In this document: positions 22-8,180 of the stretch, piece after piece
How the letters are laid out: every line of letters starts with the position of its first letter
Numbering within the stretch: position 1 is the stretch's first letter
Source of the DNA: Escherichia phage phiSUSP1
Sequence record: KT454805
Reading direction: 5' to 3' (one strand)
Length of the DNA: 64,000 nt
Notes under the pieces: model-generated
The model's input: the letters and a program-made list of their open reading frames with translations, nothing else
The model's database searches: none
Told to the model about the DNA's origin: nothing
Translations under genes and position numbers: made by a program

Positions 22-1623
22 ATGGATTTGAATGCTGTTAAGCAGAAGCGAGTGGAAGATGTAAGGAAAGTCCTAGCTGGAGAGTTGGGGCTTTCTGACG
101 AAGTTAAAGATATTATCAAGTCATTTGGTAAAGACCCCTCTAAATTCCTTCCTACTCAGATTCTGACTTTATTAAGATACACTCCAGACCAAGTAAGACT
201 TATCTTCAAACTTATGACTGATAAGAACTATGTAGCTCCACAACCCGGCTCTCAGGAAGTGTTTCTTAACACAAATGCTGACTTAGTTCTGTATGGTGGT
301 GCGGCTGGTGCTGGTAAGACTGCTGCTTTGCTGATGGATTCACTCAGATTTATCGAAGACCCTAACTACAACGCTGTATACTTCCGTCGAAACACGACAC
401 AGTTACAAGGTGGTTTATGGCCTGCTGCGAAGAAGCTTTTTGGTAAGTTCGGTGGTGTTCCACATGAACAGAAGATGACTATTGTATTCCCTTCTGGGGC
501 TACTATCAAGTTTACCTACTTAGAACTTGAAAAACACGCTGAAGGTCATCAGGGTATTGAATACTCAGCAATTTACTTTGACGAAGGTACACACTTCTCT
601 GCGTCACAGATTTCATACCTGCAAACTCGTTTGCGTTCTGGTGCTGAAGGTGACTCTTACATGAAGATTTCCATGAACCCAGACAGAGACCACTTCATTT
701 ATGATTGGGTAGAACCATTCTTAGACGAAGAAGGTTATCCAGACCCTGAGAAATGTGGTCGTATTCGTTGGTATGTGATGAATGATGGTGTGATGGTATC
801 TGATTGGGATAGAGACAAGATTCTTGAAATGTTCCCTCTGGAGATTCCTCAGACGTATACCTTTATCTCTGGTACGATTGATGATAACCCAATTCTTGAC
901 TTCTTGGAACCGAAGTATCGTGGTAAGCTGGAAAACAACACTCCAGTAAACGTTGCACGTTTGAGATTTGGTAACTGGAAAGCTCGTGCAGAAGGTTCTA
1001 ACTATTGGCAAAGGCAATGGTGTGAGATTGTTGACTCAGTTCCACCTGACGTATTTGACGTTAGAGCATGGGACTTAGCGGCTACTTTACCTTCTGAAGT
1101 TAACCCTAACCCTGACTGGACAGCAGGTGTTAGAATGGCTAAATCTAAAAAAGATGGTTGCTATTATGTCATGAACGTAGTAAGATTTAGAGATAGACCT
1201 TCTGGAGTCGAGACACAAATTAACTTGACTGCTGAAAGCGACGGCAAACGTACTGGTATCTTTATTCCTCAAGACCCAGGCGCTGCTGGTAAATCCTACG
1301 CAACATCTCTTATCAGAAAACTTGCCGAGAAAGGTTATCGTGCAAGAGCCAAACCAACCAATAAAGATAAAGTTACCCGTTTTGCAGGTTTCTCTGCTGC
1401 TTCTGAAGCAGGATTGGTAAAAATCGTTAGAGGTAGCTGGAACGAAGCCTATTTCCAAGAACTGGAAGGTTTTTGTGGAGATGGGAAAACCAAGGATGAC
1501 CAAGTGGATGCCACAAGCGATGCTTTCAACAGTCTCAACGAAGTAAAACTATTCAAGCCACCTTCTATGGGTACTCACACTGACTTAGTGAGGAGCAATC
1601 CTTATGAGGGGCTTAGACGTTAA
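22..1623 (+). CDS. terminase large subunit (ATPase + nuclease); ORF is open to the window edge so the start may lie upstream, ATG at 22 has a GGAGG RBS
   Basis: P-loop/Walker A LYGGAAGAGKTAALL about 95 aa in; about 535 aa; immediately upstream of portal gene. Confidence 0.85.
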   Translation: MDLNAVKQKRVEDVRKVLAGELGLSDEVKDIIKSFGKDPSKFLPTQILTLLRYTPDQVRLIFKLMTDKNYVAPQPGSQEVFLNTNADLVLYGGAAGAGKTAALLMDSLRFIEDPNYNAVYFRRNTTQLQGGLWPAAKKLFGKFGGVPHEQKMTIVFPSGATIKFTYLELEKHAEGHQGIEYSAIYFDEGTHFSASQISYLQTRLRSGAEGDSYMKISMNPDRDHFIYDWVEPFLDEEGYPDPEKCGRIRWYVMNDGVMVSDWDRDKILEMFPLEIPQTYTFISGTIDDNPILDFLEPKYRGKLENNTPVNVARLRFGNWKARAEGSNYWQRQWCEIVDSVPPDVFDVRAWDLAATLPSEVNPNPDWTAGVRMAKSKKDGCYYVMNVVRFRDRPSGVETQINLTAESDGKRTGIFIPQDPGAAGKSYATSLIRKLAEKGYRARAKPTNKDKVTRFAGFSAASEAGLVKIVRGSWNEAYFQELEGFCGDGKTKDDQVDATSDAFNSLNEVKLFKPPSMGTHTDLVRSNPYEGLRR

Positions 1624-1640
1624 CAATTCAGGTGAGAAGA

Positions 1641-3107
1641 ATGGCAGAAATTACAGAAACACAAGAAAGCCTACCTCCATTCAGAATGGGTGAGGTTGGG
1701 AGCCTTGGTTTAAAGGTTCGTGGTGGAAGAATCTACGAAGAACCTAGACAAGCTTTAAGATTCCCAGAAAGTATTAAGACTTTCCAACTGATGATGCGTG
1801 ACCCTGCTGTAGCGGCATCTGTAAACATTATTAAGATGTTTGTTAGAAAAGTCAACTGGAGATTTGTTCCTCCGAAGGGAAAAGAACAAGACCCTAAGAT
1901 GATTGAACGAGCAGACTTCTTTAACTCTCTGATGGATGACATGGAGCATGATTGGGCTGACTTTATTAACTCTGTAATGTCATTCTGTACTTACGGATTC
2001 TGCGTGAATGAGAAAGTTTACAAGAAGCGTCAGGGTAATAAAGGGAAATACCCTTCAAGATATAATGATGGTTTAATTGGTTGGGCTAAACTCCCTATCA
2101 GAAACCAGTCAACTCTTGATAAATGGTATTTTGATTCAGATTATCGAAAAGTAACAGGTGTTAGACAGAATCTGAGAAACGTTTCACACATTGCTGGAGC
2201 TATTAATCTGGCTGAACAGCCACTGACAAGAAAACTTCCAAGAAGTAAATTCTTGCTGTTCAAATATGATGATGAATACGGTAACCCAGAAGGTCGTTCA
2301 CCATTGCTTAATGCTTATGTACCTTGGAAATATAAAGTCCAAATTGAAGAGTACGAAGCAGTTGGTGTTTCCAGAGACTTAGTAGGTATGCCAAAGATTG
2401 GTTTACCACCTGATTATCTGGATGAGAATGCTGAACCTGAAAAGAAAGCTTTCGTAGAATACTGCAAATCTGTAGTTAATGATATGATTGCAAATGACCG
2501 AGCAGGTTTAATCTGGCCTAGATTCATCGACCCAGAAACTAAAGAGGATATCTTTGAGTTCTCATTAGTGTCTAGACAGGGTGCAAAGGCTTATGATACC
2601 GGAGCTATTATTGACCGTTATTCTAAGCAGATTATGATGGCGTTTATGTCAGATGTTCTTGCAATGGGTCAGTCAAAATATGGTTCATTCTCTTTAGCAG
2701 ATTCTAAGACAAGTTTACTTGCAATGTCTGTAGACATTCTTCTGAAACAAATCAGAAACGTAATTAACCGTGACCTAGTAGCACAGACTTACGCTCTGAA
2801 TATGTGGGATGATGAAGAACACGTTCAAATCGTTTATGACGACATTGAAACTCCAGACCTTGAAGCTATCGGTGCTTATATTCAGAAGACCGTCGCAGTT
2901 GGTGCTATGGAAGTTGATAAGGAACTGTCTAACAAGCTTAGAGAACACATTGGCTTACCACCTGCTGATGAGTCTCAACCTGTGTCTGAAGAATTATCTC
3001 CTAACACTCAAAGTCGTTCAGGAGATGGTTATAAGACTGCCGGAGAGGGAACTGCGAAGACCCCTTCAGCAAAAGACCCAAGTACAGCGAATAAGGCAAA
3101 TAAATAA
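1641..3107 (+). CDS. portal protein
   Basis: about 490 aa ORF directly after terminase and before prohead protease; ORF track start 1632 is GTG, ATG at 1641 more likely. Confidence 0.7.
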   Translation: MAEITETQESLPPFRMGEVGSLGLKVRGGRIYEEPRQALRFPESIKTFQLMMRDPAVAASVNIIKMFVRKVNWRFVPPKGKEQDPKMIERADFFNSLMDDMEHDWADFINSVMSFCTYGFCVNEKVYKKRQGNKGKYPSRYNDGLIGWAKLPIRNQSTLDKWYFDSDYRKVTGVRQNLRNVSHIAGAINLAEQPLTRKLPRSKFLLFKYDDEYGNPEGRSPLLNAYVPWKYKVQIEEYEAVGVSRDLVGMPKIGLPPDYLDENAEPEKKAFVEYCKSVVNDMIANDRAGLIWPRFIDPETKEDIFEFSLVSRQGAKAYDTGAIIDRYSKQIMMAFMSDVLAMGQSKYGSFSLADSKTSLLAMSVDILLKQIRNVINRDLVAQTYALNMWDDEEHVQIVYDDIETPDLEAIGAYIQKTVAVGAMEVDKELSNKLREHIGLPPADESQPVSEELSPNTQSRSGDGYKTAGEGTAKTPSAKDPSTANKANK

Positions 3108-3607
3108 TGGCTGAAGTTATCTCTATTTCAAATGCTACACGAGTGCATTCGTATAGAGGTGTTCTGGTTATTACTGATACGTTATCTGTAGAGGCTGGCT
3201 CAAGGGTCAGCCTTTCAGGTTATGTAAGTGATGGTGGAACCTCTAACGTTTTCACTATTTGTAGGTTACTTGATGCTCCAATGAACGGAAATTCGTTTAT
3301 TTCAAACAATTGTAGCGAAATTGTTAAAATTCCATTTGACAGTTCATGCCTTTTGGGTGTAAAGTTATATAACTGTGAAAATAAACGTATAAACGTTAAT
3401 AGCGTTGAAGCTGCGTTCATTACCATTGACACAGCATTTCAATCCCCAATGACAGTAAACAAAGAGTCTAACAGACTTGAGTACATTTTTTCACAAAATG
3501 ATTACAAAGTACTTGTCAAAGGTAAAGTATATGATATGATTGTAAATGTGGTGGATGAATCTGGTAACCATTCAACAGTCCTTAAACAGAAAGTAAGGTT
3601 CAATTAA
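3107..3607 (+). CDS. hypothetical protein (166 aa) between portal and protease
   Basis: ORF track; start overlaps portal stop; no recognisable motif. Confidence 0.4.
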   Translation: MAEVISISNATRVHSYRGVLVITDTLSVEAGSRVSLSGYVSDGGTSNVFTICRLLDAPMNGNSFISNNCSEIVKIPFDSSCLLGVKLYNCENKRINVNSVEAAFITIDTAFQSPMTVNKESNRLEYIFSQNDYKVLVKGKVYDMIVNVVDESGNHSTVLKQKVRFN

Positions 3608-3939
3608 TGGGAACATTAACTATTGATGGTAAGAATAAAATCCTCGCCACGCTAACCCCAACGACTATTGTTTTACACAATGTAGACCCAACGGCAGACC
3701 CTACAGCAAATAAGGTTACTCAGCCAGTGGCTATTTATTTCTCTGAACCGAACAACGGCTTAATTGCCTCAGAAGATACAGTCAATATTACTGTACCAGC
3801 TTCTGCAACGGTCTCACACTATAGCCTATGGGATGCCAACGATAAATGCGTGGCAACAGGTGCTCTTAGCAGCCCTCAATTCTTTGCTGAAGAAGGTATC
3901 TATGTTATCGCTTCAGTATCGGTGGATTTAAACAAATAG
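3607..3939 (+). CDS. hypothetical protein (110 aa)
   Basis: ORF track; start codon coupled to the preceding stop. Confidence 0.4.
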   Translation: MGTLTIDGKNKILATLTPTTIVLHNVDPTADPTANKVTQPVAIYFSEPNNGLIASEDTVNITVPASATVSHYSLWDANDKCVATGALSSPQFFAEEGIYVIASVSVDLNK

Positions 3940-3949
3940 GGTGAGTAAA

Positions 3950-5296
3950 ATGAGTTCGAATATCTTCAGACTTGCTGATAGATTATTCAACCAACCTTTA
4001 CTAGCCACTGAATCTCTAGCTCACTCAGCAGCGACTTATGTAAATAATCGCTTGTTAGGTGAAGTTCAAGCAGCAGTCAATTTCGACAAACCTAAAGGTG
4101 AGGCAAGAAGTCTTTTAAAAGTTAAAGACGACATTGCTATTATCCCTATTATGGGTGGCCTAACACATCGTATGACCTTTATGGATGCAATGTGTACTGG
4201 TGGTCTGAGTTCTTATGAAGGTTTACGCAGAGGCTTTGATGAAGCTTTAGCAGATGAATCTATTAAGACAATTGTACTGCATGTTGATTCTGGTGGTGGT
4301 GAAGCTTCAGGTTGTTTTGAATTAGCACGTCACATCGTAGCCTCCAGAGGCAAAAAGAAAATTGTAGCATATGTTGATGAGTTCGCATGTTCCGCTGCGT
4401 ATGCACTTGCATGTTCTGCTGATGAAGTAATTGCATCACCAGATGCAGATGTTGGTTCAATCGGTGTAATTATGGTTCACCAAGAATTAACTAAAGCATT
4501 TGAAAAGAATGGCGTTACGATTAACGTTATTAAAGCTGGTGAATTTAAAGGTTTGGGTTCTCCATTCCAAGCACTCTCAGAAGAAAGCAAAACAAGACTT
4601 CAGCAGAGAATTAATGACACCTATAACACCTTCACAGGTTTTGTAGCTGATGCACGTAATATCTCTGAAGAAGCTGTAAAGAATACTGAGGCGAATGTTT
4701 ATTCTGCTCAGGAAGCTCTTGAACTTGGTTTAATTAATTCAATCATGTCTCAAGATGATTTCTTAAATTACTTACAAGGTTCTGATGAAGCTCCTGTAAG
4801 TTTAAACGTTAACAATTCAGGTGAAGAAATGACTGAACAAGAAAAGCAAGAACTAGAGGCTCTACGCGCTCAGGTTGCTCAGATGAAAGCAAAAGAACAG
4901 GAAAAAACTATGTCTGAACTGACTGGTAAGATTTCTGCTTCTGCTGAAGCTTTCGGATTTGACGCAACAGAAGCTGCTCAGGCTATCTTAGGCGCTGGTC
5001 TTGACAACCCTCTGAGTGTTCTCTTTATGAATGCTATGGAAGGTGCTAACCAGAAACTAAATGAAACTATCGCGTCTCATGCTTCTGCAATGTCAGAGAA
5101 AGACACAGAAATCACTAAGCTGAAAGAAACTGCTGGTGCTGTTCTGGAACACTCTAACGCAATGGAAGAAATGGGTAATGACGGTGAAGCAGAACTGGTT
5201 GATGAAGAAAAACCTTCTGAAAACGCATCTGATGACACCGCAGAACAACGCAAACTGGCTCTCCAGAATGCTTTGCAATCTCTTCTTAATAAATAA
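3950..5296 (+). CDS. prohead protease (S49/SppA-ClpP-like) fused to coiled-coil scaffold-like C-terminal region
   Basis: N-terminal peptidase-like region (IIPIMGGL, VDSGGGEASGCFELA, acyl-enzyme Ser region FACSAAYALAC); C-terminal Q/E/K-rich helical region; between portal and capsid. Confidence 0.7.
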   Translation: MSSNIFRLADRLFNQPLLATESLAHSAATYVNNRLLGEVQAAVNFDKPKGEARSLLKVKDDIAIIPIMGGLTHRMTFMDAMCTGGLSSYEGLRRGFDEALADESIKTIVLHVDSGGGEASGCFELARHIVASRGKKKIVAYVDEFACSAAYALACSADEVIASPDADVGSIGVIMVHQELTKAFEKNGVTINVIKAGEFKGLGSPFQALSEESKTRLQQRINDTYNTFTGFVADARNISEEAVKNTEANVYSAQEALELGLINSIMSQDDFLNYLQGSDEAPVSLNVNNSGEEMTEQEKQELEALRAQVAQMKAKEQEKTMSELTGKISASAEAFGFDATEAAQAILGAGLDNPLSVLFMNAMEGANQKLNETIASHASAMSEKDTEITKLKETAGAVLEHSNAMEEMGNDGEAELVDEEKPSENASDDTAEQRKLALQNALQSLLNK

Positions 5297-5308
5297 GGAA
5301 CACAAATA

Positions 5309-5686
5309 ATGGCATATGAAGGTTTTACTCACTTAGGTAACAGAGAACCACTGAATGATATCATTCTTTGGGAACAGATTACACCAACAGGTCACTCTCG
5401 TAAAGAGTACGCTCCAGTCGCTGCTACAGAATACCGTGTAGGTGAAGTTCTGAAAGCCGATGGAACCAAAGTTGCAACTGGTGAAGAAGCTCAGGCTGAT
5501 TCTGTTTGCATCGTTAACTTCTACGCAGACCTGCAACTGTCTTACCACGGTCAGTTGAAAGTTGTTGGTATCTACCGTGATGCTGAACTGAAAGACCTCT
5601 TAACTCTGGCTGAAGATGTTGATGCCGACGCAGTTAAGGCGGCTCTGAAAGCAAAAGGCATTGATTTCGTACCAACTGGCCTGTAA
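5309..5686 (+). CDS. head protein (decoration/scaffold-like), function uncertain
   Basis: 125 aa ORF between protease and major capsid gene. Confidence 0.4.
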   Translation: MAYEGFTHLGNREPLNDIILWEQITPTGHSRKEYAPVAATEYRVGEVLKADGTKVATGEEAQADSVCIVNFYADLQLSYHGQLKVVGIYRDAELKDLLTLAEDVDADAVKAALKAKGIDFVPTGL

Positions 5687-5716: not shown

Positions 5717-6826
5717 ATGGCATTAACTAATTCTGAAAAAAGCAGATTTTTCCTTGCTGACCTGACTGGTGAAGTCCAGTCTATCCCAAATACTTATGGT
5801 TATATTTCCGGTTTGGGTCTTTTCCGTTCTGCCCCAATTACTCAGACCACTTTCCTGATGGATTTAACTGAGTCTGACATTAGCTTACTGGATGCAGTAG
5901 ACCGTACCAGCCGTAAAGCTGAGACGAGTGCTCCAGAGAGAGTTAAGCAGATTAGCTTCCCAATGATGTACTTCAAGGAAGTGGAAAGCATTACTCCTGA
6001 TGAAATTCAGGGTGTACGTCAGCCAGGCACTGCAAACGAACTGACTACTGAAGCTATCGTTCGTGCTCGTAAGCTGATGAAGATTCGTACCAAGTTCGAT
6101 ATTACTCGTGAGTTCTTGTTCATGCAAGCTCTGAAGGGTAAAGTAATCGACGCTAACGGTGTTCTGTACGCTGACCTGTTCAAGCAGTTCGACGTTGAGA
6201 AGAAGACTGTTTACTTCGACCTTGACAATCCAAACGCTGATATCGACGCTGCTATCGAAGAACTTCGTATGCACATGGAAGATGAAGCTAAAGTTGGTAC
6301 TGTAATCAACGGTGAAGAAATTCACATCGTTGTTGACCGTCTGTTCTTCAGCAAGCTTATCAAGCATCCGAAGATTCGTGACGCATACCTTGCACAACAG
6401 ACTCCGCTGGCTTGGCAGCAGATTACTGGCTCTCTGAGAACTGGTGGTACTGATGGCGTTCAGGCGCACATGAACACATTCTACTACGGTGGTGTGAAGT
6501 TCGTTCAGTACAACGGTAAGTTCCAAGATAAGCGTGGTAAGACTCACGTTCTGGTAAGCATCGACGGCGTAGCAAACACTGTAGGTGTTGGTCATGCGTT
6601 CCCTAACGTTTCTATGTTGGGTGAAGCTAACAACATCTTCGAAGTTGCATATGGCCCATGTCCTAAGATGGGTTATGCAAATACTCTTGGTCAGGAACTG
6701 TACGTATTCGAATACGAAAAAGACCGTGACGAAGGTATTGACTTCGAAGCTCACTCTTACATGCTGCCATACTGCACACGTCCTCAGTTGCTGGTAGACG
6801 TTCGTTCTGACGCTAAACCAGACTAA
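5717..6826 (+). CDS. major capsid protein
   Basis: 369 aa ORF in canonical position after protease/scaffold; strong RBS GGAGAAT; high-expression codon look. Confidence 0.7.
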   Translation: MALTNSEKSRFFLADLTGEVQSIPNTYGYISGLGLFRSAPITQTTFLMDLTESDISLLDAVDRTSRKAETSAPERVKQISFPMMYFKEVESITPDEIQGVRQPGTANELTTEAIVRARKLMKIRTKFDITREFLFMQALKGKVIDANGVLYADLFKQFDVEKKTVYFDLDNPNADIDAAIEELRMHMEDEAKVGTVINGEEIHIVVDRLFFSKLIKHPKIRDAYLAQQTPLAWQQITGSLRTGGTDGVQAHMNTFYYGGVKFVQYNGKFQDKRGKTHVLVSIDGVANTVGVGHAFPNVSMLGEANNIFEVAYGPCPKMGYANTLGQELYVFEYEKDRDEGIDFEAHSYMLPYCTRPQLLVDVRSDAKPD

Positions 6827-6847: not shown

Positions 6848-7300
6848 ATGTGTTATACAGGCGACCCAGCCAATAACCCTCTTGATAGAGTAAGAATCCT
6901 CTGCACCGACACCAATAACGATGAACTTCTTATTGAACAGTCGGTGCTAGAGTGGTTCTATGTGGAATCTGGTAAAGACGAAAAGAAAGCAGCCATCAAA
7001 GCTCTTAAATATTTACTCTTTCAAGTAGCCAAGATGGGAGATGAGAAAGTTGGTGGTGTTTACTTACGTAACTCTTCCAGATTCAAGTCTCTAAAAGCTG
7101 TCTACGACGACCTGATTAAAAGTTCAGTGTCTGGTCTACCTTATGCGGGTGGGATTAGTCAGTGTGATATTGATATCAGGCGTCAACAGAATCCTTGCTC
7201 TGTCAAGAAATATACTGAATATGGCGATGCTGCTAGATATCATGGTAGAGACTTCTGCCCTAATGTCAATGGCGTATTTATTATCGAGCGAGATGAATAA
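6848..7300 (+). CDS. head-tail connector / head completion protein (putative)
   Basis: position between capsid and tail genes; RBS AAGGAGG. Confidence 0.4.
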   Translation: MCYTGDPANNPLDRVRILCTDTNNDELLIEQSVLEWFYVESGKDEKKAAIKALKYLLFQVAKMGDEKVGGVYLRNSSRFKSLKAVYDDLIKSSVSGLPYAGGISQCDIDIRRQQNPCSVKKYTEYGDAARYHGRDFCPNVNGVFIIERDE

Positions 7301-7782
7301 TGGTTAAAAGGGTTATTCACCCCGCGAGAGCTAAATTAGTCGGGGCTATGAAGAACTTGCATACGGCTAATGCTCAAGTTGGGTATTTTCAAGAACAAGG
7401 TCAACATAGCTCTGGTTTTTCTTATCCTGCTTTAATGTACTTACACGAAGTTATTGGGGTTCCCTCAGCTTCTGGTAAAGTATATCGTAGGTTGTTTGAA
7501 ATCACTATGATGCTAAACAGACAGACCTTGTTAGAGCAGACTAAGAAGAATCTCTATAAGCAACTTAACAGTCTTAACGTAGACCCTACAAATACTTTGG
7601 AAGCCTTTGCAAAGAGTGCTCAGAAGTCAATTAAAAGAGGTTTCGGTAATACTGCTATCCTTCCTCCTAACGCACCTTCCACAGTCAAGAAAAAAGGTTT
7701 TAACGCACCTCTTGTTGAGACGGGTGATTTAAGAGACCAACTTGCTTATAAAATTTCTACTAAAAAGGGTATTAAGAAATGA
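7300..7782 (+). CDS. head-tail joining protein (putative)
   Basis: ORF track; start overlaps the preceding stop. Confidence 0.4.
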   Translation: MVKRVIHPARAKLVGAMKNLHTANAQVGYFQEQGQHSSGFSYPALMYLHEVIGVPSASGKVYRRLFEITMMLNRQTLLEQTKKNLYKQLNSLNVDPTNTLEAFAKSAQKSIKRGFGNTAILPPNAPSTVKKKGFNAPLVETGDLRDQLAYKISTKKGIKK

Positions 7783-8180
7783 GACTCTTAAACAGACACC
7801 GCTTTGTAGTTAAGCGTAAAGTATCTGAGGATGGTTATTACAATAACGATGGTGATTGGGTAGCTTCAGAAGATATTGTAGAGATTAACTGCAAAGGTAA
7901 TATCCAGCCATATATTAAGGGTTCTGTGAAGAATGGTACACAGATTGTTTTACCTGAAGGTATTCGACTGACTGATACCAGAATCCTTTATACTGTAGCT
8001 AAGTTGAGAACATCTGATGATGTTGATTGGACTGAATCTGATATTGTGGTGATTGATGGTCACGAGTATGAAGTATTTATGACAATGGATTGGTCAAATC
8101 AATTAGCTTACACATCCCATTATGAATATATCATTATTAGAAGGGATAAAATGAATGCAGTTAGAAACAGCAGAACTTGA
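7779..8180 (+). CDS. neck/tail completion protein (putative)
   Basis: ORF track; overlapping start/stop. Confidence 0.4.
   Translation: MRLLNRHRFVVKRKVSEDGYYNNDGDWVASEDIVEINCKGNIQPYIKGSVKNGTQIVLPEGIRLTDTRILYTVAKLRTSDDVDWTESDIVVIDGHEYEVFMTMDWSNQLAYTSHYEYIIIRRDKMNAVRNSRT

Follow-up and report, generated by a model that had tools for sequence, protein, structure and literature searches.

The closest described systems to the two genes considered here are the collars and whiskers of two phages whose necks were analyzed by electron cryomicroscopy (cryo-EM) in 2025. These are Bas63 (JohannRWettstein, genus Felixounavirus; connector structure 9MT4; Hodgkinson-Bean et al., Sci Adv 2025, PMC12609058) and the Shigella phage Sf14 (genus Mooglevirus; neck structure 9C39; Subramanian et al., Commun Biol 2025, PMC11821841). 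Our subject is a pair of genes, encoding proteins of 166 and 110 amino acids (aa), that lie between the portal gene and the prohead protease gene of Escherichia phage phiSUSP1 (genus Suspvirus; record KT454805). We analyzed a stretch of 64,000 nucleotides from this record, which we call the window. With a probability of about 96%, the products of this pair form the collar-whisker complex in the virion neck of the Ounavirinae (Felix O1-type phages).

In Bas63, twelve immunoglobulin (Ig)-like collar subunits are reported to encircle the junction of the adaptor and head-closure proteins, on the outside of the connector. The head-closure protein is a hexameric ring and is contacted by every second collar subunit. 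Putative disulfides link neighboring collars (Cys52-Cys90) and tie collar Cys69 to Cys2 of the adaptor. From each collar projects an N-terminal "rope" on which two whisker dimers are threaded. In the whisker monomer, an N-terminal helix and a small sheet accompany an incomplete beta-sandwich, which is completed by a strand of the rope. The whiskers alternate in direction: the up-facing ones contact the capsid, and the down-facing ones contact the tail terminator and the first two rings of the sheath (all from PMC12609058). Sf14 has the same up and down whiskers, and both of its proteins were found in virions by mass spectrometry (PMC11821841). Across the two studies, the collar and whisker proteins were resolved on the outer face of the mature neck at 3.0-3.4 Å. 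According to PMC12609058, phiTE has the connector core in common with Bas63, but not the collar and whiskers.

Other neck decorations are more distantly similar. The Ralstonia podophage GP4 (Zheng et al., J Mol Biol 2023, as cited in PMC12609058) is built on the same principle: its collar ring is Ig-like, and a small protein with an incomplete sandwich forms dimers that are threaded on a rope. In GP4, the rope is a separate and longer protein with five dimers, and all of the fibers point up. Here, in contrast, the rope is fused to the collar and carries two dimers, the whiskers alternate between up and down, and the sequence likeness to GP4 is marginal. Fibritin (Wac) from phage T4 and gp40 from Vibrio phage XM1 are, like the collar and whiskers, peripheral decorations of a myophage neck with up and down elements. 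However, Wac is a single protein that forms a trimeric coiled coil and acts in the attachment of tail fibers. XM1 gp40 has an Ig-like N-terminal part in common with the collar, but its whiskers are coiled-coil. The collar and whiskers of Bas63 are described as reminiscent of the T4 collar and wac, yet are called unrelated to them (PMC12609058).

Both phiSUSP1 proteins align without gaps, and over their full lengths, to chains of the solved necks. The 166-aa protein (residues 1-166) matches 9mt4_G, which is named "Collar protein," with E = 7.7e-100 and 92.2% identity, and 9c39_I with E = 6.4e-102 and 94.6% identity. The 110-aa protein (residues 1-110) matches 9mt4_I with E = 1.6e-67 and 96.4% identity, and 9c39_K with E = 7e-66 and 94.5% identity. 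Each of the deposited asymmetric units (9MT4 and 9C39) holds 2 collar and 6 whisker chains. The partners of the complex are encoded nearby as well: the portal product matches chain B of 9MT4, the adaptor chain C, and the head-closure protein chain E, and all three also match their equivalents in 9C39. The collar gene directly follows the portal gene, and the whisker gene comes next.

The comparison with Bas63 is close. The lengths of 166 and 110 aa, the gene order, the cysteines (collar Cys52, Cys69, and Cys90; adaptor Cys2), and the portal, adaptor, and head-closure partners are all the same. The differences are the genus (Felixounavirus instead of Suspvirus), amino-acid changes that spare the cysteines (13 in the collar and 4 in the whisker), and the length of the adaptor (149 aa in Bas63 and 150 aa here). 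In Sf14, the pair has the same position after the portal gene; this phage belongs to Mooglevirus, and its authors name both proteins "whisker." Homology to these solved structures gives the identity, the stoichiometric class, the neck location, and the bead-on-rope architecture of the predicted phiSUSP1 complex. From the 92-95% identity to chains that were modeled there, we infer a dodecameric collar ring on the adaptor/head-closure junction in this phage as well.

These structures also bear on where else the proteins might act. A reading of the window made from its sequence alone (the sequence-only reading) had placed the two open reading frames (ORFs) of 166 and 110 aa between portal and protease, at exactly the coordinates in the table below. 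It had offered internal head or ejection proteins, capsid accessory proteins, or a moron insertion as explanations. That the proteins are internal head or ejection proteins, or else scaffolding proteins or assembly chaperones that do not remain in the mature particle, would suit genes that sit inside the head-morphogenesis operon, beside a protease-scaffold gene. Nevertheless, we give this almost no credence: near-identical proteins are seen on the outer face of the mature neck and were detected by mass spectrometry in purified virions (PMC12609058 and PMC11821841). The same cryo-EM work, on proteins that are 92-96% identical, puts them at the neck and not in the capsid lattice. The sequence-only reading also held that it would be wrong if the genes were universal and encoded assembly chaperones of a known type. 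Within the subfamily the genes are indeed universal, but their products are structural proteins and not chaperones.

We found nothing that contradicts the identification of the two proteins. Four points do weigh against the fuller account of the complex. First, the whisker scores 22.6 bits against Pfam PF23140 (GP4 Fiber-1 gp80), and the curated gathering cut-off for this family is 27. Second, the disulfides of the ring are described as "putative" in PMC12609058. Third, the composition of the whisker differs between the two papers: two gp30 and two gp31 in Sf14 (PMC11821841), as against one collar rope and two whisker dimers in Bas63 (PMC12609058). Fourth, the placement in the neck of a Suspvirus particle relies on 92-96% sequence identity.

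Table. Head and neck genes of phiSUSP1 near the collar and whisker genes, with coordinates in the window.
Feature	Position	Strand	Basis
Terminase, large	ends 1623		
Portal protein, Mu-type	1641..3107	+	Pfam PF06074 at 3e-27; 9mt4_B and 9c39_A "Portal protein," E = 0
Collar protein (ORF-A), 166 aa	3107..3607	+	Orthologue of Bas63 gp4 and Sf14 gp30; phrog_3977 at 5e-98
Rope segment of the collar gene	3107..3250	+	N-terminal residues with two related motifs
Whisker protein (ORF-B), 110 aa	3607..3939	+	Orthologue of Bas63 gp5 and Sf14 gp31; phrog_240 at 4e-28
S49 prohead protease with C-terminal scaffold-like region	3950..5296	+	Pfam PF01343 at 4e-38; phrog_53 at 2e-115
125-aa protein	5309-5686		Capsid decoration protein by PDB chain matches
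Major capsid protein, lambda-E-type	5717-6826		
Head-tail adaptor (counterpart of Bas63 gp9), 150 aa	6848..7300	+	9mt4_C at 1.1e-93; also 9c39_C
Head-closure (head completion) protein, Bas63 gp11	7779..8180	+	9mt4_E and 9c39_E "Head-closure protein," ~1e-81

The predicted fold of the 166-aa protein agrees with its identification. The sequence-only reading had proposed structure prediction as a check, with an Ig-like or beta-sandwich fold pointing to an accessory role, and for this protein the outcome was positive. We used an AlphaFold2 (AF2) model built from an alignment of 7 sequences; the model from the single sequence was unusable, with a predicted local distance difference test score (pLDDT) of 31.7. 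In the AF2 monomer, residues 1-48 are disordered (pLDDT below 50). Residues 49-166 are all-beta, with eight strands and a pLDDT of mostly ~75-87, apart from a low-confidence loop at 61-70. The top Foldseek hits of this model were 9mt4_G/H and 9c39_I/J, with TM-scores (normalized to the target) of 0.71-0.82. The next hits were Ig-like attachment domains from the baseplates of siphophages (the N-terminal domain of TP901-1 ORF48, and phage 80alpha). We assign residues ~49-166 to an Ig-like beta-sandwich and residues 1 to ~48 to the N-terminal rope. Neither protein had a fibritin or coiled-coil match in Pfam or PHROGs, and the collar model is all-beta.

Two related motifs can be read in the translation of the rope, about 21 residues apart: ISISNATRVHSY (residues 5-16) and LSVEAGSRVSLS (residues 26-37). 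We infer that one rope motif binds one whisker dimer.

The collar has cysteines at positions 52, 69, 81, and 90, three of which (Cys52, Cys69, and Cys90) are those of the proposed ring disulfides. The adaptor, on which the collar ring would dock, begins with MC and has cysteines at 2, 19, 106, 117, and 137. The codon of collar Cys69 is at 3311-3313 and that of adaptor Cys2 is at 6851-6853. The collar cysteines do not vary among database relatives with as little as 60% identity. Bonds between Cys52 and Cys90 of neighboring collars, and between Cys69 and adaptor Cys2, probably staple the ring together in this clade; the residues are present, and the bonds are putative.

Across more distant relatives, the two cysteines of the proposed collar-adaptor bond come and go together. 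Collar Cys69 and adaptor Cys2 are both present in the group of Felix O1, SUSP2, and Sf14. Both are missing from an Erwinia phage of the Kolesnikvirus group, from Pectobacterium phage Arno162, and from two metagenomic relatives (L008 and L011). Such a shared pattern fits the proposed disulfide, although it may reflect few independent events, perhaps one or two. Cys52 and Cys90 are retained in the Erwinia phage. L011 has cysteines near both positions, and Arno162 and L008 have none there.

The genes of the pair are tightly joined to the portal gene, whose product forms the dodecameric core of the connector. At both the portal/collar and the collar/whisker junctions, the stop and start codons share one base (TAATG), which fits translational coupling, as the sequence-only reading had held for the pair and the portal gene. 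The protease gene is next downstream and lies outside the collar complex: there is a 10-base gap, with no overlap, between the stop of the whisker gene and the ATG of the protease gene. A GTG at 3941 is another possible start for the protease. The ATG at 3950 is the annotated start, is preceded by the Shine-Dalgarno sequence GGTGAG, and is more likely. Between positions 1 and 9000, promoter-like sites were at chance level (19, with 19.0 expected), as were terminator-like sites (6, with 6.3 expected), and an Rfam scan of 2500-4500 matched no family. We therefore place both genes within one late head operon. This position fits co-expression with the portal, which, like the collar, would be present in 12 copies.

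A few observations concern the neighboring annotation. The first possible start of the terminase ORF is TTG at 7, and the annotated start is ATG at 22. An antisense ORF of 70 aa (3220-3432) falls within the conserved collar gene, whose product has a solved structure. The product of 5309-5686 is named "tail protease" by RefSeq and by PHROG (phrog_4146). However, its matches in the PDB, at ~1e-70, are to chains of the Sf14 capsid decoration protein (9c2d_J) and to the "Head stabilization/decoration protein" 9ncf_J, so we consider the "tail protease" label to be a propagated mis-annotation.

To describe how widespread the pair is, we begin with nucleotide identity. Escherichia phage SUSP2 (Suspvirus, Ounavirinae) shares 99.2% identity with positions 1600-5400, and at the same coordinates. 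For about 250 Felix O1-type phages of Escherichia coli, Salmonella, Shigella, and Citrobacter, the identity to this region is 89%. With either the collar or the whisker as the query, tblastn found 298 phage records, and the organism breakdowns of the two sets of hits were identical. These records span Felixounavirus, Suspvirus, Mooglevirus, the Erwinia Kolesnikvirus group, and Pectobacterium phages. At every locus inspected, the whisker gene was directly downstream of the collar gene, and the order of portal, collar, whisker, and S49 protease is kept in Erwinia, Pectobacterium, and metagenomic relatives. For instance, Erwinia phage Rouille has portal, a 164-aa protein, a 110-aa protein, and protease, with TAATG between the two small genes.

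Two of the matching records are unexpected by their names. Whisker and collar genes that are 93-96% identical to those of Felix O1-type enterobacterial phages occur in GU169904.1 (Staphylococcus phage SA1) and in MG065664.1 (Campylobacter phage A132). These records are probably mixed or mislabeled assemblies.

Outside the subfamily, we found no collar/whisker pair in three relatives with a related portal: EmilHeitz (Vequintavirus), DU_PP_I (Certrevirus, a relative of phiTE), and Pseudomonas phage TIETA. In all three, the portal gene is followed directly by a small protease of another type and a separate scaffold gene, which bears out the earlier description of the pair as extra genes in the portal-protease order. 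The absence of collar and whiskers from phiTE, as reported in PMC12609058, agrees with the absence of the pair from these three genomes. Because each query found 298 records with the same organism breakdown, and because the pair is absent outside the subfamily, we view it as a universal, lineage-specific addition and not as a moron.

In Pakpunavirus-like and Vequintavirinae phages, the small protease encoded after the portal gene (L003:5950-6420, L004:3100-3675, and L005:3957-4376) belongs to phrog_1530, which is named "DNA methyltransferase." Proteins of this type are annotated as a methyltransferase in TIETA and as a prohead protease in EmilHeitz, and they match families of head-maturation proteases. 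The name "DNA methyltransferase" is probably wrong for phrog_1530.

The base composition of the collar gene was another reason to consider a moron, or some other recent foreign insertion without a role in the virion. The sequence-only reading had noticed that 3300-3600 is AT-rich, and indeed its GC content is 0.326, compared to a mean of 0.402 for the window (z = -2.65), which puts it in the lowest 0.4% of 300-base windows. This dip, together with the splitting of genes that are usually contiguous and the absence of the pair from the nearest relatives outside of the Ounavirinae, is what speaks for an insertion. However, the GC content at third codon positions (GC3) is 0.287 in the collar gene, which is between those of the portal gene (0.315) and the protease gene (0.256). 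The deficit sits at codon positions 1 and 2, and the C-terminal domain of the collar is 39% F/Y/I/N/K/M and just 11% G/A/R/P. Because GC3 is unremarkable and amino-acid composition accounts for the dip, we do not take it as a sign of foreign origin. The pair is also present at a constant position in all of the 298 Ounavirinae-type records found, the stop and start codons overlap, and the promoter-like and terminator-like sites are at chance. Furthermore, the proteins were found in virions and modeled in density (PMC11821841 and PMC12609058). A recent insertion with no role in the virion is therefore extremely improbable. Overall, the part of the sequence-only interpretation that survives is that these genes are additions to the usual order and may encode accessory proteins of the virion; the specific options that it offered were wrong.

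Given the homology to the solved necks, the complex would be built as follows. Twelve Ig-like domains of the collar would ring the exterior of the connector at the contact between the adaptor and the head-closure ring, and the collar ring would be stapled by the putative disulfides described above. Whisker dimers would be threaded on the rope of each collar like beads, two per rope, with a strand of the rope completing each sandwich. There would be 12 whiskers, six pointing up to touch the capsid and six pointing down to touch the tail terminator and the first rings of the sheath. The overlapping codons after the portal gene would put both genes in the late head operon.

We think that the complex is most likely a mechanical brace that ties the head to the tail at their joint. 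A brace is favored because the complex would contact the capsid, the adaptor, the head-closure protein, the terminator, and the sheath. It is also favored because the whisker is nearly invariant (94-100% identical among phages of E. coli, Salmonella, and Shigella) across hosts with very different O-antigens, while the receptor-binding fibers of the same phages are highly variable.

Alternatively, the whiskers might primarily be host-adhesion fibers that bind lipopolysaccharide (LPS) transiently and raise the rate of adsorption, with bracing as a secondary role. Adhesion to LPS was raised by the authors of the Bas63 study, as Bas63 is LPS-dependent and GP4 Fiber-1 is speculated to bind LPS (PMC12609058), and the whisker belongs remotely to the GP4 gp80 family. 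The divergence of the proteins could be taken in the same direction. Compared to the Erwinia phage, the collar is 36% identical and the whisker is 44% identical, while the portal is 67% identical and the capsid protein is 63% identical. By these identities, the collar and whisker diverge faster than the core proteins, as expected of peripheral proteins; fast divergence is also typical of proteins that are exposed at the surface. On the other hand, the whisker stays nearly constant across such different O-antigens, the true receptor-binding fibers vary strongly, and the whiskers are described as short and folded against the capsid and the sheath (PMC12609058). We regard a primarily adhesive role as a tentative alternative, clearly behind the brace.

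A role like that of T4 Wac, in which the whiskers hold or chaperone the long tail fibers and aid their attachment, or their retraction under poor conditions, is less likely than adhesion to LPS. The analogy is in the alternation of up and down whiskers at the neck, which the Bas63 authors find reminiscent, and in the fibers of Bas63, which are folded up along the sheath. However, those fibers are anchored to domains of the sheath and not to the whiskers, and the authors say that the structures are unrelated (PMC12609058 for each of these points). Given that the proteins also resemble fibritin in neither sequence nor fold and lack a coiled coil, we consider fiber handling to be improbable.

The family relationships of the whisker can be followed further with profiles. 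Orthologues at the same locus score higher than the phiSUSP1 whisker against PF23140: 26.6 bits for the Erwinia phage and 39 bits for Arno162. Against the PDB, the whisker profile reached chains from the two Ounavirinae and chance matches to gasdermin, and it did not reach any chain of GP4. An exhaustive search with the profile gave 250 cluster representatives at E <= 0.001, mostly of 105-130 aa. Some representatives are ~250 aa long and have two matching stretches. The one of these that we checked (P0027) is a tandem double domain that scores 206 bits on PF23140. We also considered whether P0024 (2865 aa, with 29 stretches), P0063, and P0073 could be tandem arrays of whiskers. We rejected them because their repeats are of the F5/8 type C and PKD kinds. 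The matches to these giant proteins are spurious because scores add up over many weak repeats.

In a few relatives, the gene at the position of the collar is much longer. It encodes 499 aa in the Pectobacterium phage Arno162 (L007:3002-4501), 540 aa in L011 (L011:3379-5001), and 657 aa in L008 (L008:3028-5001); the latter two are metagenomic relatives, and all three genomes are Ounavirinae-like. The last ~165 residues of the Arno162 protein align to the whole 166-aa collar with 32% identity (E = 3e-22), and we read the same conserved C-terminal sequence in L008 and L011. The N-terminal extension of the Arno162 protein has ~10 copies of a rope-like motif, such as VSNGEVISI and VKNGERISL. More generally, the extensions of the 499-657 aa collars contain many rope-like motifs and apparently extra globular segments. 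We used counts of rope motifs from a hidden Markov model only qualitatively, as these counts are circular for the seed sequences and are too low for L008 and L011. These sequences suggest that Arno162, L008, and L011 have much longer whiskers, nearer to the five-dimer rope of GP4. In the passages of PMC12609058 and PMC11821841 that we read, we found no mention of a 499-657 aa collar.

The long collars raise the idea that the module is a length-tunable appendage of the neck, in which the length of the rope would set the number of whisker dimers and the whiskers would serve for reversible adhesion to the host surface (LPS), or for sensing, rather than as a passive brace. The 166-aa collar would then be the minimal version, with two motifs and two dimers. 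We consider this idea doubtful. If it is true, the relatives with 499-657 aa collars would bear long fibers at the neck.

Returning to the collar-whisker identification, its main value for this window is in annotation. The pair is a lineage-specific accessory of the virion that was already described in the two 2025 cryo-EM studies, so it is an ordinary find and offers nothing new to specialists who are familiar with those structures. In SUSP2, RefSeq labels the collar "hypothetical protein" and the whisker "head protein." These names persist in GenBank and RefSeq for SUSP2 and for most of the ~300 related genomes, and it is now possible to rename the proteins as collar and whisker. Felix O1-type phages are used in the typing and biocontrol of Salmonella and E. 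coli, so a neck that stabilizes the particle or aids adsorption has some practical interest.

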